Part shown: piece after piece, positions 730 to 24,532 of the stretch | How the letters are laid out: every line of letters starts with the position of its first letter | Numbering within the stretch: the first letter of the stretch is position 1 | Assembly: GCA_965226045.1 (NCBI GenBank) | Contig: CBDDBU010000021.1 | Span: 1 to 64,000, forward strand | Direction: 5' to 3' | Length of the DNA stretch: 64,000 nucleotides | From: Alphaproteobacteria bacterium | GTDB taxonomy: Bacteria; Pseudomonadota; Alphaproteobacteria; VGEJ01 | Program-made: the position numbers and the translations under genes | Notes under the pieces: model-generated | What the model was told of the DNA's origin: nothing | Database searches by the model: none | The model's input: only the letters and a program-made list of their open reading frames with translations

Positions 730-795
730 CGGAGAACGCCGATGACCGATGACGACCCCGACACCCCGATGCGCATGGTGGCTTTCGAGAATGTG

Positions 796-854
796 CTAAC
801 AGCCCGTTGATTAAGTGGCTTTTTCCGGCTCTCACTCCCAGATGAGGAATGCGG
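796..854. repeat. 59-bp terminal inverted-repeat copy (IS5/IS1182-like end, CTAACAGCCCGTTGA...)
   Basis: Near-perfect reverse-complement match to 8169..8226 (one mismatch). Begins with the same CTAACAGCCCGTTGA motif as the IS at 41247. Confidence 0.7.
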
Positions 855-888
855 CGGCGAAAGCCGTCTGGCCGCTTTGCGAGACCCC

Positions 889-2229
889 TGTCCCTCCCAT
901 TTATTCCATCTATCGCAGAAACCTTGGAATTTTGCATCACCACCGGATACCCTTTCCGGCATGCATAAGATCATCGACTTTCAATCGGCATGCATAAGAT
1001 CTCGGGCGCGCCGTCGCGCTTGCCAATCTTCGCGGACCGCGCGGCGCTCCACACAGAAATCCTTGCCCTGCGACAGCAGGTAGCTGTCCTGAAACGGAAA
1101 AGGCCCCGGCCATCGCTTCGGAAGGCAGATAGGGTTTTCTGGGTCATCCTGTCTTGCCTATGGCCTGGCTGGCGCCACGCCCTGGTAATCGTCAGGCCCG
1201 AGACCGTCATCGGTTGGCACCGCAAGGGGTTCAGGCTTTTCTGGACATGGAAGTCGCGGCGGAGAAAGCCGGGCCGACCACCGGTGTCGAGGGAGATCCG
1301 CCATCTGGTCCGACGGATGTCGCGGGAGAACACACGGTGGGGCGCACCTCGGATCCATGGCGAGCTTTTGAAGCTTGGCTTTTCCATCTCCCAGGCCGCC
1401 GTCTCGAAATACATGGTCCGTTACCCATCGCCGCCATCGCAGTCGTGGCGGACATTCCTTACAAATCACGCCGATTGCCTGGCGTCGATCGATTTCTTCG
1501 TGGTCCCCACGGCCACGTTCCACCTCCTGTTCGGGTTCATCGTGCTCCACCACGAGCGCCGCCAGATCGTGCATTTCGGTGTCACGGCGAACCCGACGAT
1601 GGCGTGGGTCGCACAGCAGATCCGAGAGGCATTCCCGTGGGGCACGGCGCCGCGGTACCTGATCCGCGACCGGGACGGCGCATACGGGCAATCGTTCCGC
1701 TCGACCGTGACGGCGATGGGCGTGGAAGAGGTCGTTACGGCGCCACGGAGCCCGTGGCAAAATCCGTATGTGGAACGCCTGATCGGCAGCGTGAGGCGCG
1801 AATGCCTGGACCATTCGATCATCCTCAACGAGCGGCATTTGCGGCGCATTCTTGGCTCATACCTCGACTATTATCACGGTTCAAGGACCCACTTGTCGCT
1901 CGGCAAGGACACCCCGGATGGACGACCCGTTCAGCCGGCCGGGTCCGGAACGGTCGTTTCCTTGCCCAAGGTCGGCGGTCTGCATCATCGTTACGAACGC
2001 CTCGCGGCCTGACCACCCCCGCTCGGATTCGATCAATTCCTCTCTGTGGCAACGTGGACGCTGCCGGCATCCGCATGCCCTTGCATAGGTTCGCTGGCAC
2101 GATCCGGCGGAATAAGCATCGTGATGACCGCGCCCATGGTCGATTACAAAATCCACTGGCTCAAAATGATGTCCGTGCCGGAGAGCCGAGCCGTCGTTGG
2201 GAGGCACGATGGAATAAATGGAAGGGACA
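889..2229 (+). mobile_element. IS481-family insertion sequence, copy 1 (carries a 47-bp insertion near the transposase start)
   Basis: About 1.3 kb unit, repeated at 4213..5506. Terminal inverted repeats are TGTCCCTCCCATTTATTCC (left) and GGAATAAATGGAAGGGACA (right). Encodes an rve/DDE integrase-type transposase. Confidence 0.8.
990..2012 (+). CDS. IS481-family DDE transposase (integrase core domain)
   Basis: 340 aa. HTH region (RWGAPRIHGELLKLG), rve core (DFFVVPT ... DRDGAYG ... SPWQNPYVERL). Identical to the 4285..5289 product apart from the N-terminus. Confidence 0.8.
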   Translation: MHKISGAPSRLPIFADRAALHTEILALRQQVAVLKRKRPRPSLRKADRVFWVILSCLWPGWRHALVIVRPETVIGWHRKGFRLFWTWKSRRRKPGRPPVSREIRHLVRRMSRENTRWGAPRIHGELLKLGFSISQAAVSKYMVRYPSPPSQSWRTFLTNHADCLASIDFFVVPTATFHLLFGFIVLHHERRQIVHFGVTANPTMAWVAQQIREAFPWGTAPRYLIRDRDGAYGQSFRSTVTAMGVEEVVTAPRSPWQNPYVERLIGSVRRECLDHSIILNERHLRRILGSYLDYYHGSRTHLSLGKDTPDGRPVQPAGSGTVVSLPKVGGLHHRYERLAA

Positions 2230-2589
2230 GGCCAGCACGGCCGCAGACCGAATGCAGGATCGCGCATCGTTGAGACAGCCTGCCCCGGGTTGCTTCTGCC
2301 GGCTTCAGACCGTCCCGCCGCCGTCGACAGTATGTCGACCGCTGGACCGGCTTGGCTCACGCCAACCTTCCGTCCTGAGCAAGGAGTGACCCGATAGCCA
2401 TATCTGCCATACTGGCTGGCCAAGCGGATGATCGCGGCCGCATCTGGCCTCCATCATCCCGTTCCCGGGGCTCTTGAGCGAGCGATGTTCCTGCAACAGC
2501 ACGGCACGTCGCTCGGAGAAGTTCGGCCTGGAGATGATCAACACGGCGGCCGATTAGCATTCTGAGCGCCTCTTTCAATTATCAGCTTA

Positions 2590-2860
2590 TCCAACGTCAG
2601 ATCCAGCGTTCCACGGATTCTGCTGCTCCAGGTCCTTCAGACGCTTGGCCCAGTACGAAGGCCGCCATATTCCTTGCACCAGCGGTAACCTGCGCCGGAT
2701 ACGCCGGCGACGACAAGTTCAACGGGCTGGCCCTGCGCCAAAGCCACACTGCGGTCTTCGAGCAACATGCTGATAATCTGCTGAGGTGTCGCGGACGGCT
2801 CATGTTGTCCTCCTTTCGAGGGGGCAAATGCGCCAAACTCCAATCAATCTGGACCATTTT
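2590..2860 (-). pseudogene. IS3-family (IS407-like) orfA remnant, multiply frameshifted
   Basis: Fragments GVSGAGYRWCKEYGGLRTG and AKRLKDLEQQN are spread over three frames and resemble the IS407-group OrfA (FYRWRKKYGG ... KRLKELEAEN). Truncated by the IS481 copy at 2229. Confidence 0.3.
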
Positions 2861-4212
2861 GCCTCACTCGATAACGCTCGAACAGCTGCCAAGTCATCAC
2901 GCTGATACACCGCCCATGCTTTTTCGTGGCACGTGAAAAAGGTGATTGTGCCGGTATCGCCAATCTGAAGAATTGACCCCGCTTCAGATCGCCGTTGATT
3001 CCGGTTCCGTCCCGGCGCAGCATTTTGGCTCTGTGAACTATATTTGAGGGGGGCCCTGGATGAGATCGCACCATCGACCTCTTGAAGGGTGTAAGGATCG
3101 CTCACGGCAGACCGAACTCGCCGATCCTGACAAGACGGGACCAAGGTTCATGTTGGGATGGGTCCTGTAAGCCCAAGGTCAAGCGAGAAATTTTAGTACC
3201 GAACGCCATCGTCTCAAGAACTCCACGCACGTGGATCGAACGTATCGTCCCTGGTCCTCATGCGTGCCGATGTTCCAGCCGCGTGATCGTCTGCCCTCGC
3301 GGTCGATGCCGGCAATGAGTGGGCGTTCCCGCCAGTTCGTCATATGGCCTCTGTTGTAGCTCAGGGCCGTCTGTGATCGTTAGCATTTGAGCTATGAAGC
3401 TGCCGTGTCGATCAATGGACTCATGTAGCCGTTCTGCTCCGTCCAGGTTCCCCGCCCTGCCAATCCCGGATGGGTTGAGTTTGAACGATACCCGCCCGCA
3501 GATAGAGACATCGTCGATGGTATAGTGCGTACGTGGCAGCTGTAGACCCGCCTTGTCTTATGTCGCTCAATCCGTTCGCCTCTTGGTGCCATGTGAATGA
3601 GGACTTCGCCATCGATCTGTTTTTCCGACATGTTTCTCCGATCTGCAACTTCAACTCCTGGCAATCGTCGATCGCCTGGACATTGCACGCCACGACATAG
3701 CCTCGATGCTTCTCGCTCGCAGCCCTCGACGATGCCTCGATGGGAAGCTTGGGGTGGATAGGGCTGAGCCCGGTCCCCACGACTTGGCGGAAGGCCTTTG
3801 AGCAAAATTTCGACACCATCTTGGAGCGGGCCATGTGAGACTGATACCCCTCTCCTGCGCCAAACGGTGAAGTTTCCAGGCCTTGCCTCCGTCACATTTC
3901 CTCGGCCTAGGCGCCGCTGCCCCAGCCAGATAAGGACGTACAGCGGGAGCGTACAGATGTCATCATCGGAACAAGATTTTCGAGGGATGTCAGTCACGGG
4001 GTCTGCCGGAATCCTCCGGCATTTGGATCTGGAGGCAAGATTGCTGCAGCGTTCCGCTGTTACCCGCCAAGCGTTGAGAATCAGCAAACCACTCGCAGCC
4101 AATGGCGAGGCGTCCCATTCGAGTATTCATGTTGATCAATCTGTAGCGAGGACGGCTCGAGCTGGTGCCGAACCCGTTGCAATCCAAAGCAGACTTCCCT
4201 GTTGTGAGACCC

Positions 4213-5506
4213 TGTCCCTCCCATTTATTCCATCTATCGCAGAAACCTTGGAATTTTGCATCACCACCGGATACCCTTTCCGGCATGCATAAGATCATCG
4301 AAATCTTCGCGGACCGCGCGGCGCTCCACACAGAAATCCTTGCCCTGCGACAGCAGGTAGCTGTCCTGAAACGGAAAAGGCCCCGGCCATCGCTTCGGAA
4401 GGCAGATAGGGTTTTCTGGGTCATCCTGTCTTGCCTATGGCCTGGCTGGCGCCACGCCCTGGTAATCGTCAGGCCCGAGACCGTCATCGGTTGGCACCGC
4501 AAGGGGTTCAGGCTTTTCTGGACATGGAAGTCGCGGCGGAGAAAGCCGGGCCGACCACCGGTGTCGAGGGAGATCCGCCATCTGGTCCGACGGATGTCGC
4601 GGGAGAACACACGGTGGGGCGCACCTCGGATCCATGGCGAGCTTTTGAAGCTTGGCTTTTCCATCTCCCAGGCCGCCGTCTCGAAATACATGGTCCGTTA
4701 CCCATCGCCGCCATCGCAGTCGTGGCGGACATTCCTTACAAATCACGCCGATTGCCTGGCGTCGATCGATTTCTTCGTGGTCCCCACGGCCACGTTCCAC
4801 CTCCTGTTCGGGTTCATCGTGCTCCACCACGAGCGCCGCCAGATCGTGCATTTCGGTGTCACGGCGAACCCGACGATGGCGTGGGTCGCACAGCAGATCC
4901 GAGAGGCATTCCCGTGGGGCACGGCGCCGCGGTACCTGATCCGCGACCGGGACGGCGCATACGGGCAATCGTTCCGCTCGACCGTGACGGCGATGGGCGT
5001 GGAAGAGGTCGTTACGGCGCCACGGAGCCCGTGGCAAAATCCGTATGTGGAACGCCTGATCGGCAGCGTGAGGCGCGAATGCCTGGACCATTCGATCATC
5101 CTCAACGAGCGGCATTTGCGGCGCATTCTTGGCTCATACCTCGACTATTATCACGGTTCAAGGACCCACTTGTCGCTCGGCAAGGACACACCGGATGGAC
5201 GACCCGTTCAGCCGGCCGGGTCCGGAACGGTCGTTTCCTTGCCCAAGGTCGGCGGTCTGCATCATCGTTACGAACGCCTCGCGGCCTGACCACCCCCGCT
5301 CGGATTCGATCAATTCCTCTCTGTGGCAACGTGGACGCTGCCGGCATCCGCATGCCCTTGCATAGGTTCGCTGGCACGATCCGGCGGAATAAGCATCGTG
5401 ATGACCGCGCCCATGGTCGATTACAAAATCCACTGGCTCAAAATGATGTCCGTGCCGGAGAGCCGAGCCGTCGTTGGGAGGCACGATGGAATAAATGGAA
5501 GGGACA
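4213..5506 (+). mobile_element. IS481-family insertion sequence, copy 2
   Basis: Same inverted repeats and body as 889..2229 but without the 47-bp insertion. No target-site duplication evident. Confidence 0.8.
4285..5289 (+). CDS. IS481-family DDE transposase
   Basis: Start set at the internal Met (MHKIIEIFADRAAL), because the listed ORF start at 4165 lies outside the IS left end at 4213. rve-domain motifs as in copy 1. Confidence 0.75.
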   Translation: MHKIIEIFADRAALHTEILALRQQVAVLKRKRPRPSLRKADRVFWVILSCLWPGWRHALVIVRPETVIGWHRKGFRLFWTWKSRRRKPGRPPVSREIRHLVRRMSRENTRWGAPRIHGELLKLGFSISQAAVSKYMVRYPSPPSQSWRTFLTNHADCLASIDFFVVPTATFHLLFGFIVLHHERRQIVHFGVTANPTMAWVAQQIREAFPWGTAPRYLIRDRDGAYGQSFRSTVTAMGVEEVVTAPRSPWQNPYVERLIGSVRRECLDHSIILNERHLRRILGSYLDYYHGSRTHLSLGKDTPDGRPVQPAGSGTVVSLPKVGGLHHRYERLAA

Positions 5507-5588
5507 AGCTATCGTGCAAGGGATGAACGGCAAGCGGTTGCAATACCGCGAGCTGGTGGCCTAGTCGGCCACCACTGAAATCGTAAGG

Positions 5589-5644
5589 GCCGTCTCCGAC
5601 GCTGGCAGGCTGGGAGAGACGGAGACCCCATCGGCTTTTTTTTC
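5589..5644 (+). terminator. Rho-independent-terminator-like hairpin plus T9 run (orphaned)
   Basis: CCGTCTCC ... GAGACGG stem followed by CCCCATCGGC and nine T. Lies about 80 bp past the IS481 copy-2 right end, with no intact upstream gene. Confidence 0.4.
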
Positions 5645-6776
5645 ACTAGTCGCAACTGGGTGCCGGATGCACAAGTCCCTATCAATCCCAGCCCGAGACG
5701 GTGAGTTCGTACCCGCACGCGCGGCACCTGAATTCGGCGAAAGTATCGTCTCCCGTGGCGACAAATCTGTCTTTACTGACCTCGAGCACCGAGACGGCCC
5801 CCCGGATTATGAAGCAGTCGGGACAACGCAGGTCAGCCCCAAGACGCGGTCTAAACTTGAGAAGGCGCTGATACGCCGCGCCCGCTATCTTACTTTCCTC
5901 TGTCTTCTTCGTGCTTTGCGTCTGAAGGTCGAGTGTCTCGAGATCAAGGCGCGGCCTTCTTCTTCACTTGCTGCGCCGCAAGGTCACGGGCGCGCTTCTT
6001 AATCTCATCGTCAGTTCGTGCATAAGCGAGACTGCTTCTTCCACGTATGTAAGGTACCGCTTATGCACTTTGTTCCGGCGCAACCAACATGTTGCGGGGT
6101 GACCCAGGTTTGGCGCGGATGGCGATGGCGAACAGGGAGCGGACAGGTGGCGTGCCGCGTTCTGCGTCGGTTGAAGCGGAAGACCGAAGCGGCTCGTCGA
6201 GATAGGTTTGCAGGTATTTCCTGCGCAGCCCGTGATAGACCCCCCGGGCCCAGCCCTTGAGGTTGCGGAGAACATCTGATGGATCCAGGGCAAGACAAGA
6301 TGTGCGGCCATGGCGCCGATGACGTGGGGATCTGTGCTGGTTGACGGGGACGCCGGCATATCCGGCCCATCCATCGGTCTTGGCGGTAAAGCTGCATCTT
6401 CGGGGCGATGTTACGGGCGATGAACGGCGTTGAGACTGCCGGCACCGTAGTCGGTGAGAGCGGCCAGGCGCAATCGGCAAACGGCTTGTTGCCGTCGCCC
6501 ACCTCGGATGCCACCGACCACGAGCAACTTGCCGGGTCATGGCTTCGCCCGGGGCCGAGGCCGGCGGGGTCGTTCTTGGTCCGGAAAGTGCAGGGAGGTT
6601 TCGTCGATCTCGACCAGCCCCGACAACGGATTGCGGTCTGGATCGACCATCGCCCGGCGCAGTTTGGCGGCCAGTATCCAGGCCGTGCGATAGGACCCGA
6701 GAGTCGAGCTGCTTCTGACAGCTGAAGGGCGGAGATGCCGTACCGAATGGGTCGCCATCAGATAGGCCGCCCAGAA

Positions 6777-7866
6777 CGGCTTTGGTGCATGGAGCCGCGA
6801 TGGTGTGATCGCCCATTCCCCGGTTGGTTAGCGGATCCTGATTGTGTTTGGTTTCGCCGCACGGATAGAGCGATTGAGTGCGTCGATCTGCATGGCGATT
6901 TCGGTTTGTTGGGATTGGAATGTGCGAGCGTTGAGCTTGCCGCCGTTGAGCCTCTTGACGCGAGCCATGGCTGTTTCGCCAAGCGCTCTCAATCCGTAGC
7001 CCTGTCGTTTCTGCCAGTTCATCCTTCCCTTCGACGCGATCTCCGCCGCATGGTGCTCCCGTTCCGATCCGCCATGAGGCGTGTCCGGGAGAGGAATGGA
7101 TGTGGCGCGTGGCGGGATGATGATTTCAGGTGGTGAATTCGGTGGCCGAGCTTCTCGGATCGCTTTTGTCACGGGCTCCCCGTCATAGGCGCCGTCGGCA
7201 AACACGCGCCGGATCATCCCACCGGAACCGGCGACCAGCGGTCCCGCCATCGTCGCATCGGCCGTGTCGTCACCGGTCAGTTCATGCGCCCGTATCTCGC
7301 TGCTGGCCGGGTCAACCGAGATATGCAGCTTGCGCCACGAGCGCCGCGTTTCACCGTGCTTGGCGCGAGCCCACTCGCCAGCGCCAAAGAATTTCAGGCC
7401 CGTGGAATCCAGCACGATATCCGTAGACCGCTTGTTCGTGCTGGTTTCCACAACGACATCCACCGTTCGCCGCCGCCGCGACAGCGTGGTGTGATCCGGC
7501 ACCGGCAGATCACACCCCATCAAGTCCACGAGGGAACGCACAAAGCCTTCCGTCTGGCGCAGCGGCAGTCTGAAGACCACCCCCAGCATCAGTGTCGTGG
7601 AAATCGCCAACTCTGAAAACCGCCGCTGGCCACCAGGAGTTCGCCGCTTGGCTGCGTCCCATTGCTCCAGGGCGCTCTCATCAATCCAGAAACGAATGTC
7701 GCCGCGCCGAACCAAACCACGGTCATAATCCGGCCAGTTCATGACCCGGTACTTGGCTCTGGGGATATGGTGGCGACGCGATGCGTGGAACTTGAAAGGC
7801 ATGACAAACTCTCAAAGACGGAAGCGGAGCCAGATATACTAATCCTCAGGTCCATGCACCAAACTT
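6777..7866 (-). mobile_element. IS903-group (IS5 family) insertion sequence, copy 1
   Basis: About 1.09 kb. Terminal repeat GGCTTTGGTGCATGGAGCCGC resembles the IS903 GGCTTTGTTGAATAAATC end. Single DDE transposase ORF. Confidence 0.8.
6828..7802 (-). CDS. IS5-family (IS903 group) DDE transposase
   Basis: 324 aa. Motifs KLHISVDPASSEIRAHELTGDDTADA ... FADGAYDGEP ... IIPPRA are typical of IS903-group transposases. Confidence 0.8.
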   Translation of the reverse strand: MPFKFHASRRHHIPRAKYRVMNWPDYDRGLVRRGDIRFWIDESALEQWDAAKRRTPGGQRRFSELAISTTLMLGVVFRLPLRQTEGFVRSLVDLMGCDLPVPDHTTLSRRRRTVDVVVETSTNKRSTDIVLDSTGLKFFGAGEWARAKHGETRRSWRKLHISVDPASSEIRAHELTGDDTADATMAGPLVAGSGGMIRRVFADGAYDGEPVTKAIREARPPNSPPEIIIPPRATSIPLPDTPHGGSEREHHAAEIASKGRMNWQKRQGYGLRALGETAMARVKRLNGGKLNARTFQSQQTEIAMQIDALNRSIRAAKPNTIRIR

Positions 7867-8168
7867 TCGCCTTCGCGTAGTCGCACTCGCCGACCGCCGC
7901 CCGATCACCTTGCGAACCGCTGTTCTCACCCGCCGCTCGTAGCTGTCGCGGACGATGTTCCTTCACGTCGCGGACGATCGGCTTGTTCCTGCCGAAATAC
8001 CCCCGCCGAATCCGCGCTATCGTCTCCACAACCAGCATCCCCCATCACCTCGTCCGTCCAAAACGAGGTGCCATGGACCAGCATGGTTCAGGGGGTCAAA
8101 GTTGGACGCCGATCACCCCGCAACCGGGGTCAACATGACAAACTCGTTCCAGGCAGGCCGTTCCACAC

Positions 8169-8226
8169 CGCATTCCTCATCTGGGGGTGAGAGCCGGAAA
8201 AAGCCACTTAATCAACGGGCTGTTAG
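8169..8226. repeat. 58-bp terminal inverted-repeat copy (partner of 796..854)
   Basis: Reverse complement of 796..854. Confidence 0.7.
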
Positions 8227-8342
8227 ACATTGCAGGTATTTCCGGCGGCCATTATGCTGATTGCGATGGCAGCATGGCGCCCTAACCGGGCGCTGGAGCG
8301 TCTCAATCGCTTATCCACCACGCCTGAACGAGGAGAATATCC

Positions 8343-8645
8343 ATGAAGAAGAGCCCGCTTGTTCTAACGGCCGCACTCCTGGCCGCCTCTAATCTCGCGA
8401 GCGCTGAACTCGCGCAAGCAGCAGACAATAATGCCGAATGCTATGGCGTCTCGCTCGCCGGCAAGAACGACTGCAAGGCGGGTCCAGGCACGACCTGCGC
8501 CGGTAGCTCGACTGTCGACTACCAAGGCAACTCCTGGAAGCTGGTCCCCGCGGGCACCTGCGAGTCGATGACCTTCGAGACCATGGATGGCCGTATGGTG
8601 AAGGGTAGCCTCACCGAGCTGAAACGCGATCTGCCGAAGACCTGA
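8343..8645 (+). CDS. bufA: Bufferin precursor (DUF2282 family, BufA-like), signal peptide plus Cys-rich core
   Basis: 100 aa. Sec signal ([21 protein letters not shown]), then [16 protein letters not shown] ... [24 protein letters not shown], matching DUF2282/bufferin precursors. GAGGAG ribosome-binding site 8 bp upstream. Confidence 0.7.
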
Positions 8646-8717
8646 TAGGAAACCGCTCGGTTTGCCGCCCGCCCCCATACCCCGCGGCGACCGGACGGCC
8701 GTTTCTGGACCCCGGCC

Positions 8718-9593
8718 ATGGCCGTTTCGTTTTCCGCTGCCGCCTTTCCGCCGCAGATACCGTCGCGGGCCGGTGTCGGTTTCAAGGGCGAGCATGCAGA
8801 GACGGTTTTCGGGGACCGGCCCGACATCGGCTGGTTCGAGGTCCATCCGGAAAACTACATGGTTGCAGGCGGGCCGCGGCTGGCCCTGCTTGAGGAGTTG
8901 CGCAACGCATATCCTTTGTCGCTGCACGGTGTCGGCCTGTCGCTCGGCGGCGCCGAACGTCTCGACGTTGATCATCTGATCGCATTGCTCGCGTTGGTGG
9001 ATCGCTTCCAGCCAGGGCTCGTTTCCGAACATATCGCTTGGTCGACGCATAGCGGAATATGGTTCGCCGACCTGCTGCCACCCAGCCTCAGCCGGGCCGG
9101 CCTCGACTGCCTGTGCGACAATATCGACGAGATGCAGGAATCCCTCGGACGGCAGATGCTGATCGAGAACCCAGCCAGCTATCTGACCTTGCCCGACCGC
9201 GAAATGGACGAGGCGGCGTTCATCGTCGAAGCGGCTCGGCGGTCCGGCTGCGGCCTGCTGATTGACGTCAACAACATCCATGTCAGCGCAGTCAATACCG
9301 GTATCGACGCCGAAACCTATGTCGACGCCATTCCCGGCGACCTGATCGGGGAGATCCATCTCGCCGGGTTTACGATCGACGATGCGGGCGGCGAACACCT
9401 GTTGATTGACAGCCACGGAGCCGCAGTCGACGCGGCGGTCTGGCGGCTCTACGAGCGGCTGATCGGGCGAATTGGAGCACGGCCCACGCTGGTCGAATGG
9501 GACAAGGATATTCCCGACTGGGAATTGCTGCATGCCGAGGCCATGGAGGCCGAGACCTGCCTGGCGCGTCTCTCCGAGCCCGTGCCGGCGTGA
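8718..9593 (+). CDS. bufB: DUF692 (MNIO / BufB-like) multinuclear non-heme iron oxidase
   Basis: 291 aa. Motifs GVGFKGEH, EVHPENYM, YPLSLHGVGLSLG, SEHIAW and NNIHVS are characteristic of DUF692/UPF0276 enzymes that modify DUF2282 peptides. Confidence 0.8.
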   Translation: MAVSFSAAAFPPQIPSRAGVGFKGEHAETVFGDRPDIGWFEVHPENYMVAGGPRLALLEELRNAYPLSLHGVGLSLGGAERLDVDHLIALLALVDRFQPGLVSEHIAWSTHSGIWFADLLPPSLSRAGLDCLCDNIDEMQESLGRQMLIENPASYLTLPDREMDEAAFIVEAARRSGCGLLIDVNNIHVSAVNTGIDAETYVDAIPGDLIGEIHLAGFTIDDAGGEHLLIDSHGAAVDAAVWRLYERLIGRIGARPTLVEWDKDIPDWELLHAEAMEAETCLARLSEPVPA

Positions 9594-9613
9594 GGCGGCC
9601 TGCCGAAACCAGA

Positions 9614-10393
9614 ATGGATCCCGCAGCCATTCAGTCGGATTTTGCCGCTGCCCTACACAATCCATCGCCAGATGCCGTGCCCACCGGCTTTTCCGATGTG
9701 GCGGCACGGCGGTTCCGCGTTTACCGCAACAATGTGCGCATCGCACTGATCGAAGCGCTGGGGGCGGCCTATCCGGCTGTCCTGCGGCTTGTCGGCATAC
9801 CGTTCTTCGAGCAGATGGCCCGCGTCTACATCGAAGCCTGCCCAGCACGGCAACGCACGCTCAACCTGTATGGCGACGGGTTCGACGACTTCGTCGGCGG
9901 TTTCGGGCCGGCGCGCGGATTGCCGTACCTCGCCGATGTCGCCCGGCTTGAGCGTGCGGTGCTCGAGGCGTGCCACGCTGCCGATGCACCAGCGCTTGAC
10001 CCGGTATTGTTGACGGCGCTCGGGCCCGGACTTGCCTCGGCGCGGTTGACGCCACACCCCGCGACCCGGCTGATCCGCTCGGCCTATCCCATCGCCGATA
10101 TATGGCACGCCAACAACGGCGATTCACTGCTGGAGGACGAACTCGTCCTCGCTAACACAGCCGCCGGCGCGCTCGTGATGCGGCCTGGCTTTTCCGTCTC
10201 GGTGGAGGCGCTCGCTTCCGGCCAGTGTACTTTCGTCGAGACCCTGCTGGCCGGCGACAATTTGGCGGCGGCGAACGCAGCGGCGGTCTTGTTCGATGAG
10301 GGATTCGACATCATTGTGGCGTTCCGGGACCTGCTTGCCGCGGGAGCCTTCGCCGGTATCGCAAGCAAACCGCTCGAAGGAGAACAGGTATGA
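9614..10393 (+). CDS. bufC: DUF2063 (BufC-like) partner protein of the DUF692 enzyme
   Basis: Start set at internal Met (MDPAAIQSDFAAAL), just after the bufB stop. DUF2063-like N-terminus. Overlaps the next gene by ATGA. Confidence 0.65.
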   Translation: MDPAAIQSDFAAALHNPSPDAVPTGFSDVAARRFRVYRNNVRIALIEALGAAYPAVLRLVGIPFFEQMARVYIEACPARQRTLNLYGDGFDDFVGGFGPARGLPYLADVARLERAVLEACHAADAPALDPVLLTALGPGLASARLTPHPATRLIRSAYPIADIWHANNGDSLLEDELVLANTAAGALVMRPGFSVSVEALASGQCTFVETLLAGDNLAAANAAAVLFDEGFDIIVAFRDLLAAGAFAGIASKPLEGEQV

Positions 10394-10878
10394 GCGGTGA
10401 CAAACTGACGGCCGCGGCAAGCGGCATATTGCGCAAACTGGCGCCGCTGGTCGATGGGGGCCACCGCGTTGCGGATTCCATTACGCGTCGGCTGACGCCG
10501 TTGGCGCTGCTTACCCTTCGGCTGCCGATCGCCGTGGTGTTCTGGCGTTCCGGCCGCACCAAGGTCGAGGGCTGGAGCATCTTCTCGGTCAAGGACACCC
10601 AGTATTTCCTGTTCCGGGAGGAGTTCGGCGTGCCGCTGCCGGAACTCACGGCCCATCTCACAGCGCTGGCCGAGCACATTCTGCCGGTCCTGCTCGTGCT
10701 TGGCCTGTTCACGCGTCTCAGCGCACTCGGAATGTTCACCATGACCATGGTTATCCAGCTATTCGTCTATCCCGACGCATGGTTGAGTGCCCACATGTTC
10801 TGGGCGGTCATCCTGCTCGCCGTGATGGTACTCGGGCCGGGAACGATCTCGCTCGATAAACTGCTGTTCCGCCGGTAG
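10390..10878 (+). CDS. bufD: DoxX-family membrane protein (BufD-like)
   Basis: 162 aa with 3-4 predicted TM helices. Translationally coupled to bufC. DoxX is the usual fourth gene of buf1-type operons. Confidence 0.65.
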   Translation: MSGDKLTAAASGILRKLAPLVDGGHRVADSITRRLTPLALLTLRLPIAVVFWRSGRTKVEGWSIFSVKDTQYFLFREEFGVPLPELTAHLTALAEHILPVLLVLGLFTRLSALGMFTMTMVIQLFVYPDAWLSAHMFWAVILLAVMVLGPGTISLDKLLFRR

Positions 10879-11195
10879 ATCGTTTCGTCACCCTGCGGCG
10901 GACGATTGGATCGGCGGCGGTGTGAAACCGGTTCCTCGCCAATCTGTGGCCGCGTTGCAGTGGGCCTGCCTACAATCGGCGCTCGCCGGGGGTTTGGCGT
11001 GCGGGTTCGACGCCGAGCGGCATGCCACTCTACAGATGCGGTTCGATTATGAGGAGTCAAACTCCCGCGCCAGACCAAAACCCCGGGGTTGTTGGAGCCG
11101 ACTGATTCCGGCCATTGGAGCGCATTTCCAATAGACAGAATCTGAAAGGGGATTGAAGTAAACCGCTAGCCGGTGGCCGAGAAGGCCTTCGACTT

Positions 11196-12423
11196 GGCTT
11201 TGGTGCATGGAGCCGCGATGGTGTGATCGCCCATTCCCCGGTTGGTTAGCGGATCCTGATTGTGTTTGGTTTCGCCGCACGGATAGAGCGATTGAGTGCG
11301 TCGATCTGCATGGCGATTTCGGTTTGTTGGGATTGGAATGTGCGAGCGTTGAGCTTGCCGCCGTTGAGCCTCTTGACGCGAGCCATGGCTGTTTCGCCAA
11401 GCGCTCTCAATCCGTAGCCCTGTCGTTTCTGCCAGTTCATCCTTCCCTTCGACGCGATCTCCGCCGCATGGTGCTCCCGTTCCGATCCGCCATGAGGCGT
11501 GTCCGGGAGAGGAATGGATGTGGCGCGTGGCGGGATGATGATTTCAGGTGGTGAATTCGGTGGCCGAGCTTCTCGGATCGCTTTTGTCACGGGCTCCCCG
11601 TCATAGGCGCCGTCGGCAAACACGCGCCGGATCATCCCACCGGAACCGGCGACCAGCGGTCCCGCCATCGTCGCATCGGCCGTGTCGTCACCGGTCAGTT
11701 CATGCGCCCGTATCTCGCTGCTGGCCGGGTCAACCGAGATACGCAGCTTGCGCCACGAGCGCCGCGTTTCATCGCCTTCTGCCGGTCGTTCTTCCCCTGG
11801 TCCCGCCATCGTCGCATCGGCCGTGTCGTCACCGGTCAGTTCATGCGCCCATCTCGCTGCTGGCCGGGTCAACCGAGATATGCAGCTTGCGCCACGAGCG
11901 CCGCGTTTCACCGTGCTTGGCGCGAGCCCACTCGCCAGCGCCAAAGAATTTCAGGCCCGTGGAATCCAGCACGATATCCGTAGACCGCTTGTTCGTGCTG
12001 GTTTCCACAACGACATCCACCGTTCGCCGCCGCCGCGACAGCGTGGTGTGATCCGGCACCGGCAGATCACACCCCATCAAGTCCACGAGGGAACGCACAA
12101 AGCCTTCCGTCTGGCGCAGCGGCAGTCTGAAGACCACCCCCAGCATCAGTGTCGTGGAAATCGCCAACTCTGAAAACCGCCGCTGGCCACCAGGAGTTCG
12201 CCGCTTGGCTGCGTCCCATTGCTCCAGGGCGCTCTCATCAATCCAGAAACGAATGTCGCCGCGCCGAACCAAACCACGGTCATAATCCGGCCAGTTCATG
12301 ACCCGGTACTTGGCTCTGGGGATATGGTGGCGACGCGATGCGTGGAACTTGAAAGGCATGACAAACTCTCAAAGACGGAAGCGGAGCCAGATATACTAAT
12401 CCTCAGGTCCATGCACCAAAGCC
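11196..12423 (-). mobile_element. IS903-group (IS5 family) insertion sequence, copy 2, disrupted by a ~120-bp internal partial duplication
   Basis: Same ends as copy 1 (GGCTTTGGTGCATGG ... CCATGCACCAAAGCC). Body identical except for the duplicated segment around 11760..11880 and a point difference. Confidence 0.8.
11246..12359 (-). pseudogene. IS903-group transposase, split by internal duplication / frameshift
   Basis: ORFs 11246..11944 and 11841..12359 together cover the 324-aa transposase of copy 1, with the repeated segment HELTGDDTADATMAGP. Confidence 0.8.
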
Positions 12424-12547
12424 GTAGGACGGGGCTGCTGATGCCCGGGAGCGGGCCTCTGACGACGGTAGAAGGAAGCCCGTGGCACCCCCAGCGCTCG
12501 GCACGCCGGCGCCACGCCGACCTGCGATGCGAGCGGCTGGACGGCCA

Positions 12548-13165
12548 TCAGCAGTCCTTCCCGTGTTCGAGGCTGAATCCCAGCAGCCCGGCAACTTTTC
12601 CCTGGACGTCCAGGATCGTATGGGCGGTGTGCAGCTCCTTCTCCAGCCGAGCCACTTTCGCCTCGAGCTCGTGCACCTTCGCGCTGAGGGGGTTGCGCTC
12701 GGCGGGCTTCCGACCGCGTTTGCTCGGGGTCAGGCCTTGAAGCGACCCCTCACGCCGCGCCCTGCGCTGCCATTCCGTCAGATGGGAGCTGTACACCTCC
12801 GAGTGGCGCCGTCGTTGGTTATAGAAGATCTCGATGTACTCGAATAGCGCAGCCCTGGCCTCGCGCCGGGTAGAAAACCGGGTACGGTGCACGAGTTCGG
12901 TCTTGAGAGATCCAAAGAAGCTCTCCATAGGGGCGTTGTCGAGGCAATTCCCCTTGCGGCTCATGGAGGCCTTGATGCCATGGAGGCGGAGCAGTTTGCG
13001 GTAGTCACCGCAGGCATATTGCACACCGCGGTCGGAATGGTGGATCAGCCCCATGGGCAACCGGCGGCTGCGGATCGCCATCTTCAGCGCCTCCTCTCTT
13101 CAGCCGCCTCCTCCAGAATCCGCAGTCGATACTGCGCGGTGAACTTGCGCCTCTTCGGCGCCCGC
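12548..13165 (-). pseudogene. IS3-family transposase mosaic (OrfA N-terminus, OrfB C-terminal rve fragment, then a second OrfA-like leucine-zipper fragment)
   Basis: PKRRKFTAQYRLRILEEA (OrfA start) sits in one frame. MGLIHHSDRGVQY ... SMSRKGNCLDNAPMESFFGSLKTE ... FYNQRRRHS (OrfB C-terminus) follows. Then SKRGRKPAERNPLSAKVHELEAKVARLEKEL (OrfA-like zipper). Internally deleted and rearranged. Confidence 0.6.
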
Positions 13166-13334
13166 CGCCGGCTTGGCCACGACCTCCGGGTCCGGCGTTG
13201 GCCGCGCGTGGCTGGCTCCGGCCCCGGGGGCCTCGTCGCGACGCTCCTCGACCCCCAGGGCCGGAGCGTCCATCTCTTGCAATGTCATCGATTCTCTCTC
13301 TGCGGTCATTGGTATTCACCTCCACCGCCCTACA

Positions 13335-13371
13335 GTAATTCCAAGGGGGCCGGTAATTCCAAGGGGGGCCG
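13335..13371. repeat. 18/19-bp tandem direct repeat (GTAATTCCAAGGGGGCCG x2) at the IS3-remnant / AT-rich-islet junction
   Basis: Direct reading of sequence. Confidence 0.8.
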
Positions 13372-13435
13372 GTGTCTCAGTGAGGTTGGCAGAGAGGGGC
13401 ACACTCATTTCTAGTCAACTGGCAGAGCTATTTAG

Positions 13436-14206
13436 ATGCTCGTCACAAGGGGCATGAGGCGTTCGCTAAAGCCCCAGACGCTAGTCATTGTAGCGAAACA
13501 TTTCGACAAGCTTTACGAAGACCTCTGGCAGGATGATGTATTTCATTACACGGGGATGGGCCGAAAGGGGAATCAACGGCTAGATCGTACTCAAAATAGA
13601 ACATTACGTGACCACGAAACACTTGGTGTGTCAGTCCATGTGTGTCAGTCCATTTTTTGAGCAATTTGTACCGGCCAAATATCACTATCAAGGAGAGGTG
13701 TACCTATCTGACAACCCGTATCAGGAGCACCAACCTGATGTCGAAGGAAATGACCGTTTAGTCTGGGTTTCCCCATTGAAGCTAAAAGTTGGTGACCCCG
13801 TACCTGAACCTCTGAATCAATATCGTGCTCGATTTGAGAAAAAGGAGAAAAGATCCGCTCAACTATCTCCAGCAAAGCTCAAGAAGAAGGCTCAACTGGC
13901 TAAGGGGTCAGCTGGGCGTAAACGTGTTTCGACCCTCCAGCACAAGAGAGATGAAAACGTTGCAGCCTATGCCAAGAATAGAGCTGCGGGATTTTGCGAT
14001 CTTTGCGAGAAACTGGCACCGTTTCTAAAAAAACGGACGGTAAACCCTACTTAGAGGTCCATCATATAATGTGGTTGGCTAGGGGCGGTGAAGATACGAT
14101 TTCCAATACCGTTTCCCTATGCCCGAACTGCCACCGCAAGATGCATTCATTGAACCTGCAGCACGATGTTTCTCGATTAACCGAAAAAGCTAGATCGTAT
14201 AAGTGA
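13436..14206 (+). pseudogene. SRA(YDG)-HNH type IV (modification-dependent) restriction endonuclease, 5'-truncated and frameshifted
   Basis: Frame 1 FHYTGMGRKGNQRLDRTQNRTL resembles the UHRF1 SRA segment FTYTGSGGRD ... NRAL. Frame 2 YHYQGEVY ... LVWVS resembles the SRA YDG motif region. C-terminal HNH motif CDLCEKLAPF ... EVHHIMWLARGG ... NTVSLCPNCHRKMH is split by a +1 shift at an A7 run (14027..14033). A 14-bp perfect tandem duplication lies at 13626..13653. Sits in an AT-rich (~45% GC) islet. Confidence 0.65.
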
Positions 14207-14242
14207 AATTCTTACATTCGGTGAGCAGTATGGAATCTGGAA

Positions 14243-14439
14243 TTATCTATAAGGCTTATCCCTCTGCATCCGGTAACGCAATATGAGGGGGCTACGCAGT
14301 TGTCGGTTGTCGAGCGGGTAGTTGGTCGCGAAAGCGCACTTTGCCTGGGCCTTAGCCGGGTCGCGCCGCTGCGCGCGTAGCATCGAGGCCACCACCCGTT
14401 GATCCTACCGGGGCCAGAGGGATAAGCCTTTTATCTATA
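14243..14439. repeat. Inverted repeat pair (core AAGGCTTATCCCTCTG / CAGAGGGATAAGCCTT) separated by ~150 bp; MITE-like or structured-RNA-like
   Basis: 16-bp perfect inverted repeat at 14251..14266 and 14415..14430, with partial extension. The GC-rich spacer contains the palindrome GCGCGCCGCTGCGCGCG. Confidence 0.5.
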
Positions 14440-14590
14440 TCCTGATCAACGAAGAGATGCCCGGATACGTCAAGATTGGGAAGACTGAAGGCCCTCTCGA
14501 GAGACGGATGAGGGGCTTGATACAACGGGCGTGCCTCTTCCGTTTGACTGCTTTTAAGCCCTCAAGGTTGGCGATGTAGATTTCGTCGGA
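14421..14590 (+). pseudogene. T5orf172 / GIY-YIG-like domain remnant
   Basis: FIYILINEEMPGYVKIGKTEGPLERR matches the T5orf172 consensus (YVL.N...KIG.T). Continuation DTTGVPLPFD is in another frame. No start codon; decays after ~50 codons. Confidence 0.4.
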
Positions 14591-14816
14591 AAACAGCTCC
14601 CACCAGACCAATGAGGTCAGTCGGAACCCTCATCCGAAAGTGATATCGCTTCTGCCTCTATCTGTACATACATGCCATCGCCGTGTAGCAATTTGTGTAG
14701 CAAACACGGCTCACGACACGGTGGATCACGCTTAAGTGATTGTTTGGCCTATGTTTTCACAAAGAATGGCGGAGTTAGAGAGGGAACAGATGGTCTGACC
14801 GACGCATGCAGCCGGT

Positions 14817-15686
14817 CTACCTGCCGATATCGACCAGGTCGCCGTAGGTCTCGGGGCGACGGTCGCGGTAGAACTGCCATAGGTCGCGGACCTCGCGCAC
14901 CTGGTCGAGGTCGATGTCGGATACCACCAGCTCGTCGTCGGTCTCGCTCGCCTGGGCGATGATCTGGCCGCGCGGGTCGACCACGTAGGACGAGCCGTAG
15001 AAGCGCCCGACGTTCCATGGCGCCTCCTCGCCGACCCGGTTGATGGCGCCGATGAAGACGCCGTTGGCCACCGCTGCCGCCGGCTGCTCCAACTCCCACA
15101 GGTATTGGCTCAAACCCGCCACGGTGGCCGAGGGGTTGACAATGTACTCGGCGCCGCGGAGCGCGAGCGCCCGCCATCCTTCGGGAAAGTGGCGGTCGTA
15201 GCAGATGTAGACGCCGAGCTTGCAATAGGCGGTCTCGAACACCGGCCAGCCGCTCGCGCCAGGCTTGAAGAAGAACTTCTCGTAGAAGCCGGAGACCTGG
15301 GGGATGTGGGTCTTGCGATACTTGCCGAGGTAGCTGCCATCAGCGTCGATCACGGCTGCGGTGTTGTAGTAGACCCCGGTCATCTCCTCCTCGTAGACCG
15401 GCGCCACGATCACCATGTCGTGGCGCTTGGCGAGTTCGCGCATGTGGCTCACGGTCGGCCCGTCGGGCACCTTCTCGGCGGCGGCGTACCACTTCCGGTC
15501 CTGGCTCGGCGGGAAATAGGGCTGGGTGAAGACCTCTTGGAGGGAGAGTATGCGTACCCCCTGGGCTGCCGCCTTGGCGATGAAGGGCTCGTGCGCGGCG
15601 ATCATCCGGTCGCCGATAGCCTGCGGGCTGTCGCCGGTGTCGCCCTTAAGCGACATCTGAATCAGGCCGACCTTGACGATGCTCAT
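14817..15686 (-). CDS. Beta-ureidopropionase / N-carbamoyl-amino-acid amidohydrolase (CN-hydrolase family)
   Basis: 289 aa. Nitrilase-superfamily catalytic context (E, K, C in GVYICYDRHFPE). Genomic context with preTA and dihydropyrimidinase. Confidence 0.75.
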   Translation of the reverse strand: MSIVKVGLIQMSLKGDTGDSPQAIGDRMIAAHEPFIAKAAAQGVRILSLQEVFTQPYFPPSQDRKWYAAAEKVPDGPTVSHMRELAKRHDMVIVAPVYEEEMTGVYYNTAAVIDADGSYLGKYRKTHIPQVSGFYEKFFFKPGASGWPVFETAYCKLGVYICYDRHFPEGWRALALRGAEYIVNPSATVAGLSQYLWELEQPAAAVANGVFIGAINRVGEEAPWNVGRFYGSSYVVDPRGQIIAQASETDDELVVSDIDLDQVREVRDLWQFYRDRRPETYGDLVDIGR

Positions 15687-15888
15687 ATGGCCCCCTCGGG
15701 CTCGCGACCCTGGCTGCCCTCGTTCGACGCATGAACTTCATTCCATGGTCCACCGAAACGCCGAGCCAGGCAAGCGCGCCCGAGGGCCTCCTGCGGTGGG
15801 ACTTGATGGGGCGGGCTTGATGGGGGCGGACGGCCCTCGTAGTGTCATTTGAGCACATGAACGCGGGGAGGCGCGGCGGAGGTCCGAC

Positions 15889-17256
15889 ATGGTGGACAGT
15901 CCCGACATCGCATCGGCGCGGCGCAATCAGGCCGACTACGGAACGGCGTTCGCCGACTCGAAGCCACCGCTCGACCGCCCGCGCGCGCTGGTCGACGCGG
16001 CGCGCTGCTACTTCTGTTTCGACGCACCTTGCGTCGAGGCCTGCCCCACCGGCATCGACGTGCCGAGCTTCATTCGCAAGATCTCGACCGACAACGTGCG
16101 CGGCGCGGCGCTCGACATTCTCGAGCCGAATATCTTTGGCGGCGCGTGCGCGCGGGTGTGCCCGACCGAGGCGCTGTGCGAGGAAGCCTGCGTGCGCACG
16201 GCACAGGAAGGAAAGCCGGTGCGCATCGGCCTGTTGCAGCGCTACGCGACCGATTGGTTGCTGGCCAGTGGCGAGCAGCCCTTCTCGCGCGCCGTCGCTA
16301 GCGGCAAGCGCGTGGCGGTCGTTGGCGCCGGCCCGGCGGGTTTGGCGGCCGCCCACCGCCTGGCACGCCTCGGCCACGCCATCACGGTGTTCGAGGCGAG
16401 AGCGAAGCCCGGCGGACTTAACGAATACGGCATCGCCGCCTATAAGGTACCGAACAATTTCGCGCACCTGGAGACGGACTTCATCCTCGGTATCGGCGGC
16501 ATCGACGTCCGGTACGGCAAGGCGCTCGGGCGAGACGTAGCGCTCGGCGGCCTGCGGGCCGAATTCGACGCGGTTTTTATCGCCACCGGCCAGGCCGGCG
16601 TTCGCGCCATCGAGACCGAGGGTGCCGCGCTCGACGGCGTGCGCTCGGCGGTCTGTTTCATCGCCGAACTGCGGCAAGCCGAGGATGTGAGCCGACTGCC
16701 GGTGGGGCGGCGCATCGTCGTCATCGGCGGCGGCAACACGGCTATCGACATTGCCGCTCAGACCCGCCGCCTCGGGGCGGAGGACGTGACCATCGTCTAC
16801 CGGCGCGGGCCCGAGGCGATGGGCGCGACCCGCCACGAGCAGGAATTCGCCCAGACCGACGGGGTGCGGATCAAGCACTGGGCGCGCCCCGGCCGTCTGA
16901 TCGGCGCGGGCGGTCACGTTATCTCAGCCGAGTTCGAACGCACCCAAGAGACCGACGGCGGGAGGCTTACCGGCACTGGTGAGACGTTCGCGTTGCCTGC
17001 TGATATGGTCTTCACGGCGATCGGGCAGGCGTTCGTTATCGATCCGGTTTCAGGGGATGGTGAGGCACTGGACATCGTCGATGGCCGCATCGCGGTGAGC
17101 GGCGACGGCGCAACCTCGCTCAGCGGCGTCTACGCCGGCGGGGATTGCGTCGCCGGCGAGGACTTGACGGTCCAGGCTGCCGAGGATGGCAAGCGCGCCG
17201 GCCTCGCGATCGATCGCTATCTCAGCACTGCCGTGCAAGGAGAAGACGATGGCTGA
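15889..17256 (+). CDS. preT: NAD-dependent dihydropyrimidine dehydrogenase subunit PreT (GltD-like, FAD/NAD binding plus Fe-S)
   Basis: 455 aa. CxxCxxxCP ferredoxin motifs plus [14 protein letters not shown] dinucleotide fold. Overlaps preA start by 8 nt. Confidence 0.85.
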   Translation: MVDSPDIASARRNQADYGTAFADSKPPLDRPRALVDAARCYFCFDAPCVEACPTGIDVPSFIRKISTDNVRGAALDILEPNIFGGACARVCPTEALCEEACVRTAQEGKPVRIGLLQRYATDWLLASGEQPFSRAVASGKRVAVVGAGPAGLAAAHRLARLGHAITVFEARAKPGGLNEYGIAAYKVPNNFAHLETDFILGIGGIDVRYGKALGRDVALGGLRAEFDAVFIATGQAGVRAIETEGAALDGVRSAVCFIAELRQAEDVSRLPVGRRIVVIGGGNTAIDIAAQTRRLGAEDVTIVYRRGPEAMGATRHEQEFAQTDGVRIKHWARPGRLIGAGGHVISAEFERTQETDGGRLTGTGETFALPADMVFTAIGQAFVIDPVSGDGEALDIVDGRIAVSGDGATSLSGVYAGGDCVAGEDLTVQAAEDGKRAGLAIDRYLSTAVQGEDDG

Positions 17257-19704: not shown

Positions 19705-19860
19705 CAGGTGCAAGGCTCTCGCTCCGATCCTTCGAGACGCGGCCCTTCAGGCCGCTTCTCAGGTTGAGGAACACTCACAGATGCTCTTGCTGAGGAGGCG
19801 CGAAGCGCCGCCTCGAAGCATCGGAGCCGTTGGCGCCCAGCCCGTTCGAAGCGCAGCATC

Positions 19861-22057: not shown

Positions 22058-22072
22058 GCCGAACCGCGCGGT

Positions 22073-24525: not shown

Positions 24526-24532
24526 GCGGAAG

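Follow-up and report, generated by a model that had tools for sequence, protein, structure and literature searches.

The window, a stretch of 64,000 nucleotides from an alphaproteobacterial contig (CBDDBU010000021.1), holds a bufferin operon between two insertion sequences (IS) of one kind and one orientation. Is the operon the cargo of a composite transposon, as the preliminary description proposed, or did the IS copies arrive separately? Bufferins, which bind copper, form a very large peptide family that was defined only recently. Words beginning with "transpos" and the word "horizontal" are absent from the bufferin surveys PMC11626156 and PMC12452194; "mobile" is also absent from the latter.

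Judged from its sequence, the region 8343-10878 is an intact, ordinary Buf1-type bufferin operon with four genes:

8343-8645, plus strand: bufA, Buf1 (DUF2282) precursor of 100 amino acids; PF10048 82.9 bits, cut-off 22.4
8718-9593, plus strand: bufB, MNIO (DUF692) maturase of 291 amino acids; PF05114 313 bits
9614-10393, plus strand: bufC, DUF2063 partner protein of 259 amino acids; PF09836 80.6 bits, cut-off 27.2
10390-10878, plus strand: bufD, DoxX membrane protein of 162 amino acids; PF07681 70 bits, cut-off 23.6

All four gene families pass curated cut-offs, which confirms the initial DUF2282, DUF692, DUF2063 and DoxX assignments. In profile searches, BufB scored 347.8 bits with NCBIfam NF050167 (MNIO_BufB), above the equivalog cut-off of 310, and stayed below the respective cut-offs of the HvfB, MbnB and ChrH models. 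BufA reached only 25.8 with the NCBIfam BufA2 model (cut-off 60), as expected for a Buf1 precursor. The bufC reading frame opens at 9497; the ATG at 9614 is the start in the gene calls of all sister loci described below. The genes are contiguous and tightly coupled, as first described: an ATGA overlap joins the bufD start (10390) to the bufC end (10393), and a GAGGAG (8330-8335) lies 7 nt 5' of the bufA ATG.

The bracket consists of two copies of an IS5-family element, 1,089 and 1,228 bp in length:

6778-7866, minus strand: IS903-like element, copy 1; PF13737 and PF01609; NF033579 281 bits, cut-off 140
11196-12423, minus strand: IS903-like element, copy 2; both inverted repeats intact

The terminal inverted repeats, GGCTTTGGTGCATGGA, are perfect over 16-19 bp except for the right end of copy 1, where the last 3 nt are CTT, not GCC; its left repeat is intact. 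Copy 1 encodes an intact transposase of 324 amino acids (6828-7802, minus strand). Copy 2 differs from copy 1 by one mismatch, one 2-nt gap and an internal insertion. The insertion repeats IS positions 463-576 (114 bp; 11658-11771 recurs as 11799-11910) with 27 bp of filler (11772-11798) and splits the transposase into reading frames of 172 and 232 amino acids. This broken transposase is on record nowhere else. The two copies agree with each other and with those at other places at 99.7-99.9% identity; they are genuine near-identical repeats, and a chance match is rejected. The element is highly multicopy. At least 10 other contigs encode exactly the copy 1 transposase protein, and one 517-kb contig has five copies of the element.

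Like IS903 and IS903B, the element is about 1.09 kb long and has a single-ORF DDE transposase with PF13737 and PF01609. Its size lies in the range of the IS903 group (about 1.05-1.1 kb), and its ends match the inverted repeats of about 18 bp that start with GGCTTTG. The repeat GGCTTTGGTGCAT matches GGCTTTGTTGAAT of IS903 in 11 of 13 nucleotides; the IS903B end in plasmid NZ_CP067251 reads ...TTCAACAAAGCC. A tblastn search aligned the transposase with annotated IS903B transposases at 35% identity (96% coverage, E about 1e-46). The closest named relative is ISRm33, with a 48% identical transposase. The element is nevertheless only a distant sequence relative of IS903, has an alphaproteobacterial host and shows no 9-bp target duplication. 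Neither a 9-bp duplication nor any other was present at 13 distinct sites, and no partner flanks were found among the copies. It is therefore labelled IS903-like and not a proven member of the IS903 group.

The preliminary description had assigned two minus-strand copies to the IS903 group. Two direct copies of one element are indeed present and copy 2 has the coordinates given there, but copy 1 starts at 6778 instead of 6777 and the 9-bp duplication that would secure the group is missing. The internal disruption of copy 2 and the absence of 9-bp target duplications were correctly noted; such duplications are missing around either copy and around the pair. Since the element lacks duplications at all 13 sites, their absence around the window copies tells nothing of age. 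The structure had been taken as probably old; at 99.7-99.9% identity, both copies are instead young.

IS903 forms the composite transposon Tn903, and several traits of the window agree with such a structure. Two direct, near-identical IS copies enclose the cargo. Their outer inverted repeats (6778 and 12423) are undamaged, and an intact, functional-looking transposase, identical on at least 10 other contigs, is provided by copy 1. The outer junctions of the IS5-bufABCD-IS5 unit read GAAC abutting GGCTTTGG... on the left and ...CCAAAGCC abutting GTAGG on the right. Other traits differ from Tn903-type composites: the copies are direct, not inverted, one is broken, and the other has a damaged inner end. 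The pair has no flanking duplication, with GCCCAGAAC on the left and GTAGGACGG on the right; this is weak evidence, because the element never shows duplications.

The locus was compared with sister loci. These were selected for an exactly identical BufB, so that near-identical copies are favoured in the sample. The same buf cassette is present at about 99-100% identity on 10 metagenome contigs of one IS-rich Defluviicoccus-like population. The cassette has about 3.0-3.4 kb and comprises about 175 bp upstream of the operon, bufABCD, about 295 bp downstream and an IS256 stump. The window cassette has no substitutions relative to L005 and L009 and four relative to L003. Its flanks fall into at least six contexts among the 10 contigs. 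These may be paralogues within a single genome or different positions of the cassette in strains that co-exist.

None of the 10 sister loci has the IS903-like pair around the cassette. Seven have no copy of the window IS beside it. In L003, one copy lies upstream, in the opposite orientation and at another position; in L005 and L009, one copy lies downstream, inserted about 310 bp farther away. The IS-buf-IS unit or its junction had no match among plasmids or JGI metagenome contigs. Thus the unit was found at one place only, and its IS copies have independent flanks in the sister contigs, the very observation that the preliminary description had named as contradicting its proposal. That a composite transposon brought the operon, or regularly moves it as a 5.6-kb unit, is very improbable.

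The sequences on both sides of the IS copies give further evidence on their arrival:

6061-6777, minus strand: probable IS1595-family transposase remnant; PF12762 E 1.7e-4 and NF033547 E 4.9e-7, both below curated cut-offs
7867-8167, minus strand: degenerate left-end remnant of an IS21-family element (IS21v1), aligned to the intact 2,543-bp copy of L005 and to L091
8168-8220, plus strand: left edge of the buf cassette, constant among its copies and probably left over from another element
10879-11195, plus strand: conserved 3' spacer of the cassette, cut at 11195 by IS copy 2
12424-13397, minus strand: IS3-family debris from two copies, one represented by its orfA/orfB 5' part and the other by its orfB 3' end; NF033516 E 2.9e-41

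Copy 1 removed the 5' end of the IS1595-family remnant, with the reading frame running into the IS at 6778. On its other side, copy 1 interrupts the IS21 that is intact in L005, where IstA and IstB pass NF033546 and NF038214. The IS21v1 remnant retains its left inverted repeat (TGTGGAACGGCC...) and the first ~21 istA codons; it is scrambled beyond and has about 15 bp extra near the end (two alignment gaps). Copy 2 truncates the conserved cassette within its IS256 remnant. The last ~21 bp of the spacer (11175-11195) are the start of a 390-bp IS256-like 3' fragment, which is complete in sister loci and aligns to positions 250-335 of the 338-position model NF033543 (IS256). Both interruptions speak against the arrival of the operon together with the pair.

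The window and L005 share the order buf, IS5 in the same orientation, and IS3. The IS3 debris matches L005 19639-20008 and 20062-20298. The window lacks L005 12479-12720 and 13810-19638, and each gap abuts an IS end. L005 has a deletion-like join of its own, where its IS5 connects IS21 position ~66 to ~1580. The window version probably derives from the arrangement seen in L005 and L009. Copy 2 would be their same-orientation downstream IS copy. The DNA abutting both of its ends would since have disappeared (242 bp towards buf and 5.8 kb in the other direction), and copy 2 would also have gained its internal duplication. IS903-type adjacent deletion or IS-by-IS recombination could account for the losses. 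Copy 1 is most likely a separate, window-specific arrival inside the neighbouring IS21. The two copies would therefore make up a composite-like structure by accident. This account, a standard Buf1 cluster on a relocated cassette with separately arrived IS copies and a fortuitous bracket, is considered probable. As the outer inverted repeats and one transposase are intact, the structure could in principle move.

The surroundings support relocation. Conserved chromosome begins at 13398. From there on, the window runs collinear with L091, the contig of an orthologous strain, at 99.6-99.7% identity; L091 has an IS21 in place of the IS/buf cluster. In Defluviicoccus-like MAGs (L011-L015, L028, L029 and L107-L109), bufABCD is located in a conserved locus that is syntenic across at least seven species. 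PBP5 is upstream, and TRAP-transporter (L011) or hydrolase genes (L107, L109) are downstream. The native operon has no adjoining IS except in L108, with an IS110-family transposase downstream. Compared to the native operon, the window proteins are 71-74% (BufA), 77-83% (BufB), 61-71% (BufC) and 70-83% (BufD) identical, and homology is confined to 8325-10886, that is, to the operon edges. In the lineage of the window, the operon lies away from the housekeeping locus of related species, on a relocated cassette.

How did the cassette reach its positions? It could be a discrete translocatable unit of ~3.4 kb, moved actively by a neighbouring element and not by passive IS recombination. Candidate movers are the IS21-family elements that always adjoin its left edge, or the two inverted IS21 copies on either side of it in L005. 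The left edge is the same within 1 nt in 11 copies, and the abutting sequences differ: an IS21 left inverted repeat, an end like the IS21 right inverted repeat, or unrelated DNA. A constant edge with three different neighbours hints at a process more specific than random rearrangement. About 50 bp of this edge recur once, in L010 (~6895-6951), after a truncated IS1182-like transposase reading frame. L005 and L009 have IS21 copies on both sides in inverted orientation, the cassette occurs in at least six contexts at about 99% identity, and two of its sequence types, A and C, are found together in two independent samples. Against active movement, the right boundaries are ragged (11195, 12654, 12847, 12970, 12990 and 13090 in L008 coordinates). 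Matching terminal inverted repeats are missing, with no inverted copy of the left-edge sequence at the other cassette end, and no target duplications flank those complete IS21 copies that were examined. Every breakpoint is some IS end, as passive rearrangement predicts. Active translocation is therefore judged unlikely. The same doubt applies to the cassette as mobile cargo, copied or relocated to at least six sites, with a fixed left edge that always adjoins an IS21-family end and with a right-hand IS256 stump. The mechanism might be linked to IS21 and leave no duplications, and selection might keep the cassette in a symbiont-like, insertion-sequence-rich genome. If true, it would be the first described mobile bufferin (copper-chelating RiPP) module.

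The contexts could also be assembly artefacts, formed by chimeric joins at repeated IS, and the operon a decaying relic among dead IS elements. The comparison loci are all metagenome contigs, in which misjoins at repeated IS elements are possible for individual flanks. About half of window 1-13397 is IS-derived, and five loci have an IS4-family element between bufC and bufD. The cassettes, however, belong to distinct sequence types per context, with 0-4 versus 21-33 substitutions, so the contexts stem from separate DNA molecules, not from misjoining of a single copy. Contexts also recur across independent samples, for instance in L005 and L009 and in L001, L004 and L006. The window retains all four reading frames intact, and BufB shows no variation. 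An origin by artefact or decay is hardly credible.

The locus is a known system in an IS-rich, strain-variable region, with no new chemistry, gene content or transposition mechanism, and the IS bracket around the operon is incidental. The presence of near-identical bufABCD in many contexts of one population, off the conserved locus of the relatives, shows that bufferin clusters can change place as compact modules of four genes. This bears on the spread of metal-stress traits.

The closest known systems are buf1ABCD of Caulobacter vibrioides (CCNA_03363-03366) and the gig operons of Cupriavidus metallidurans and Legionella (PMC11626156). They share with the window the order of DUF2282 precursor, MNIO, DUF2063 and DoxX and a 100-amino-acid precursor with a Sec leader, the criterion for Buf1 precursors drawn from PMC11626156. 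By inspection, the BufA leader has MKK, a 15-residue hydrophobic stretch and then ASA before E or AQA before A. Its four cysteines (Cys33, Cys44, Cys52 and Cys73) have the 11/8/21 spacing of Cys12/23/31/52 in C. vibrioides Buf1. The D-C-K and C-A contexts around both modified cysteines are kept, with Lys after CysII and Ala after CysIII. Unlike these systems, the window cassette is IS-bounded, lacks adjacent SigF/NrsF-type regulator genes and is located among IS remnants, off the conserved chromosomal locus of related species.

Chemistry and copper function of the window operon are deduced from homology. BufA would be synthesised with a Sec leader. The multinuclear iron oxidase BufB, together with its partner BufC, would convert the central Cys44 and Cys52 into 5-thiooxazoles, and Cys33 and Cys73 would form a disulfide. 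The small modified protein would be exported and bind excess copper in the periplasm. DoxX (bufD) would be an accessory protein; the C. vibrioides system needs BufB and BufC but can do without DoxX (PMC11626156).

A consensus scan at the buf locus gave no consensus promoter and no terminator. A candidate sigma-70-type promoter was read by eye within the cassette:

8230-8258, plus strand: putative promoter, TTGCAG-17 nt-TATGCT

Its position resembles that of TTGCGG-17-ATATGG 5' of bufA in the relatives L012 and L013.

By its gene content and sequence, the operon is a Buf1-type bufferin cluster. ORF listing and profile searches agreed on the four gene families that the preliminary description had assigned:

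8343-8645: bufA, PF10048 (DUF2282), 82.9 bits
8718-9593: bufB, PF05114, 313 bits; NCBIfam MNIO_BufB equivalog model, 347.8 bits (cut-off 310)
9614 (start ATG; the ORF opens at 9497): bufC, 259 amino acids, PF09836 (DUF2063), 80.6 bits
10390-10878: bufD, DoxX, 70 bits

The bufC start at ATG 9614 is used in the gene calls of all sister contigs. The HvfB, MbnB, ChrH and ApyH models were also searched with BufB and each stayed below its own cut-off. The bufC/bufD ATGA overlap and the GAGGAG site, 7 nt 5' of the bufA ATG, are present as first described. The N-terminus of BufA consists of MKK, a hydrophobic stretch and ASA/AQA. Its cysteines (positions 33, 44, 52 and 73) have a spacing of 11/8/21, identical to Cys12/23/31/52 of the characterised Buf1 of C. 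vibrioides, and both proteins have a lysine after CysII and an alanine after CysIII (PMC11626156). In the Buf1 model, BufB and BufC convert CysII and CysIII into 5-thiooxazoles, CysI and CysIV form a disulfide, export proceeds via a Sec leader and DoxX is dispensable (PMC11626156). By analogy, the window operon may perform the same chemistry and respond to copper.

A consensus scan found no promoter. The corresponding terminator scan yielded only two candidate sites; shuffled sequence had more, and neither of the two lies 3' of bufD. A candidate promoter, TTGCAG-17-TATGCT, was located by eye at 8230-8258, a position like that of a similar motif 5' of bufA in relatives. An Rfam search of 5500-14000 gave no match. 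The 18-nt sequence TTGCAGGTATTTCC(T/G)GCG occurs twice in the window, at 6208-6225 and at 8230-8247, the second copy overlapping the candidate -35 region. This repeat may be due to chance; homology does not extend around either copy.

Eighteen metagenome contigs encode a BufB identical to that of the window, and 10 of them were retrieved. All comparison loci are metagenome assemblies, chosen by exact BufB identity. The DNA of window 8168-11195 recurs on all 10 contigs and there runs on into 390 bp from the 3' part of an IS256-like element. Within the region kept in the window, the copies of this cassette show 0-33 substitutions over 3,030 bp (approximately 99-100% identity). The flanks of the retrieved loci vary:

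L001, L002, L004, L006, L007: integrase, toxin-antitoxin and SSB genes
L003: flagellar and response-regulator genes
L005, L009: complete IS21 and ABC transporter
L008: defence genes and IS110
L010: amidase and NnrS

Together with the window's own, at least six flank combinations exist. Several of these recurred across independent samples. Cassette sequence types differ between the contexts, which therefore represent different molecules, not misjoins of one copy. The contexts may be paralogous within a genome or may be alternative positions in strains that co-exist. The five loci with integrase genes have a 1,313-bp IS4-family element (~11682-12994) exactly in the bufC/bufD ATGA overlap. It is flanked by a clean 9-bp duplication (window 10390-10398) and leaves the bufC and bufD ORFs intact, 1.3 kb apart. 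The Buf1 system and the IS903-like kind of element are already known. Modestly new is that a bufferin operon acts as a relocatable cassette within a lineage rich in IS elements; a full-text literature search joining bufferins to mobile elements returned only 'buffering' noise.

IS-derived sequence makes up approximately half of window 1-13397:

877-2229 and 4202-5506: rve_3 (IS481/IS3-like) element, two copies in direct orientation (99.9% identity); imperfect inverted repeats of 29 nt
6778-7866, minus strand: IS903-like copy 1, 1,089 bp, cutting a probable IS1595 remnant
7867-8167: remnant of an IS21 left end, separating copy 1 from the operon
11196-12423, minus strand: IS903-like copy 2, 1,228 bp, cutting an IS256 fragment of which the initial 21 bp are present
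12424-13397: IS3 debris

An HNH_2 endonuclease ORF lies at 76-729. The 112 bp to the right of copy 1 proved to be scrambled IS21 istA sequence. An orthologous strain contig of 718 kb from a different sample (L091) is 99.6-99.7% identical to window 13398-31158. To the left of the point matching 13398, it has an IS21 in place of the IS/buf cluster, so the cluster is strain-variable.

Self-comparison identified copies 1 and 2 as direct copies of the same element, as proposed, with one mismatch and one 2-nt gap between them. The reported disruption of copy 2 consists of a second, internal copy of IS positions 463-576 together with 27 bp of filler. It breaks the transposase; an exact look-up of the broken ORF found none on record. 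The inverted repeats are perfect (GGCTTTGGTGCATGGA) except for the final 3 nt of the right end of copy 1, which are CTT, not GCC. The 324-aa transposase matches PF13737, PF01609 and NF033579. It shares 35% identity over 96% of the length with annotated IS903B transposases and 48% with the ISRm33 transposase, and 11 of 13 nt of the inverted repeat agree with an IS903B end in a plasmid sequence. On these similarities, 'IS903-like' is a fair label.

IS903-group elements normally generate 9-bp duplications. This duplication is one defining feature of the group, but the window element lacks it. The 9-bp duplications noted as missing were indeed absent, and a duplication of any length was found neither around copy 1, copy 2 or the pair, nor at any of 13 distinct sites (2 in the window and 11 on the sister contigs L003, L005/L009 and L093-L101). 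Among the 13 left and 13 right flanks of IS903-like copies, no partner flanks matched. Thirteen duplication-free sites out of 13 are odd; adjacent deletions account for some cases. Because the element lacks a duplication at all 13 sites, the missing duplication cannot date the structure, and the earlier reading of an old arrangement is not supported. Identity among the copies is 99.7-99.9%, which points to recent activity.

The comparison of loci indicates that the IS bracket around the operon is fortuitous. Near the cassette, an IS903-like copy is absent from seven of the 10 sister loci. The exceptions are L003, where it lies upstream and is oppositely oriented, and L005 and L009, where it lies downstream, approximately 310 bp further out than copy 2. 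The cassette of L005/L009 has no substitution relative to the window, and the order of buf, IS903-like copy in the same orientation and IS3 is collinear. Sequence that adjoins the two ends of this copy in L005 is missing from the window: 242 bp on the left and 5.8 kb on the right, the 5.8 kb containing an IS21 fragment, an ABC transporter and part of the IS3. Deletions starting at exact IS ends would be expected from adjacent deletion of the IS903 type or from IS-IS recombination, the choice between the two being inferential. Copy 1 lies inside istA of the IS21 that is intact in L005; it therefore arrived separately and is specific to the window. The damage to its inner end suggests that a secondary deletion occurred here as well. 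The bracket could in principle transpose, since both of its outer inverted repeats are intact, as is one transposase. The proposed composite transposon was not borne out: it has no flanking duplication and no second occurrence, a plasmid near-identity search with 6000-13500 gave only two weak bufA-like matches of approximately 100-125 bp, and a scan of JGI metagenomes for the junction of copy 2 and buf had 0 matches.

The left edge of the cassette is constant to within 1 nt, adjoining an IS21 IRL, an IS21 IRR-like end or unrelated DNA; the right boundaries are ragged. These features are read as the result of passive shuffling by recombination among the abundant IS copies; active movement by an IS21-linked translocation is a less likely explanation. 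Scanning JGI metagenomes for the left edge gave 0 matches. Approximately 50 bp at this edge (8168-8220) recur once, in L010 (~6895-6951), directly after a truncated IS1182-like transposase ORF. An assignment as the end of an IS1182-like element was rejected, as the ORF aligns with no more than the central part of the transposase model. A reading of the cassette itself as a transposon was also rejected; its ends gave no inverted-repeat match better than in shuffled sequence.

The closest genomes in a species-representative collection are those of Defluviicoccus and of unclassified alphaproteobacterial MAGs; their BufB proteins share 75-82% identity with that of the window. Comparison with these bufferin loci, as the preliminary description had suggested, revealed a common bufABCD order without the window's flanks. 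Homology is limited to 8325-10886, the operon itself; the cassette thus left the ancestral locus or was never in it. In seven species, the operon occupies a syntenic locus with PBP5 upstream and no adjoining IS. TRAP-transporter genes follow in L011. Three ENA contigs (L107-L109) share the upstream synteny and have a hydrolase downstream; in L108, an IS110-family transposase also lies 3' of bufD. A PBP5-homologue search for the species' own locus reached only other species (L107-L109, 77% nucleotide identity) and an IS-rich relative in which buf does not follow PBP5 and the IS elements have only 68% similarity to those of the window. In an IS-rich relative (L103/L104; ENA ERZ25068966, ERZ26694896), the PBP5 gene is shortened to 318 aa and followed by IS1595 and IS1182 transposases, where other species have bufABCD. 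The related MAG d3d0b66b carries bufABCD on both chromosome 1 (L017) and chromosome 2 (L018); the segments around it, over 10 kb long, share 95-97% identity. No transposase was present among the ORFs scanned in the L017 flanks.

Elsewhere in the window, an SBP_bac_8 solute-binding gene is overlapped at its 5' end by a perfect 137-bp tandem duplication (26097-26370) that L091 does not have. The arms of a 228-bp inverted repeat (40824-41050 and 48854-49081; 96% identity) surround approximately 8 kb including an amidase gene; this may be another IS-related structure. A low-GC patch at 13500-14500 (47-51%, against ~62-68% around it) contains overlapping ORFs at 13608-14054 and 13994-14206, possibly one frameshifted gene; at the end of the second is the HNH-like motif CPNCHRKMH. 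The patch also has a 41-nt inverted repeat at 14235-14275 and 14406-14446.
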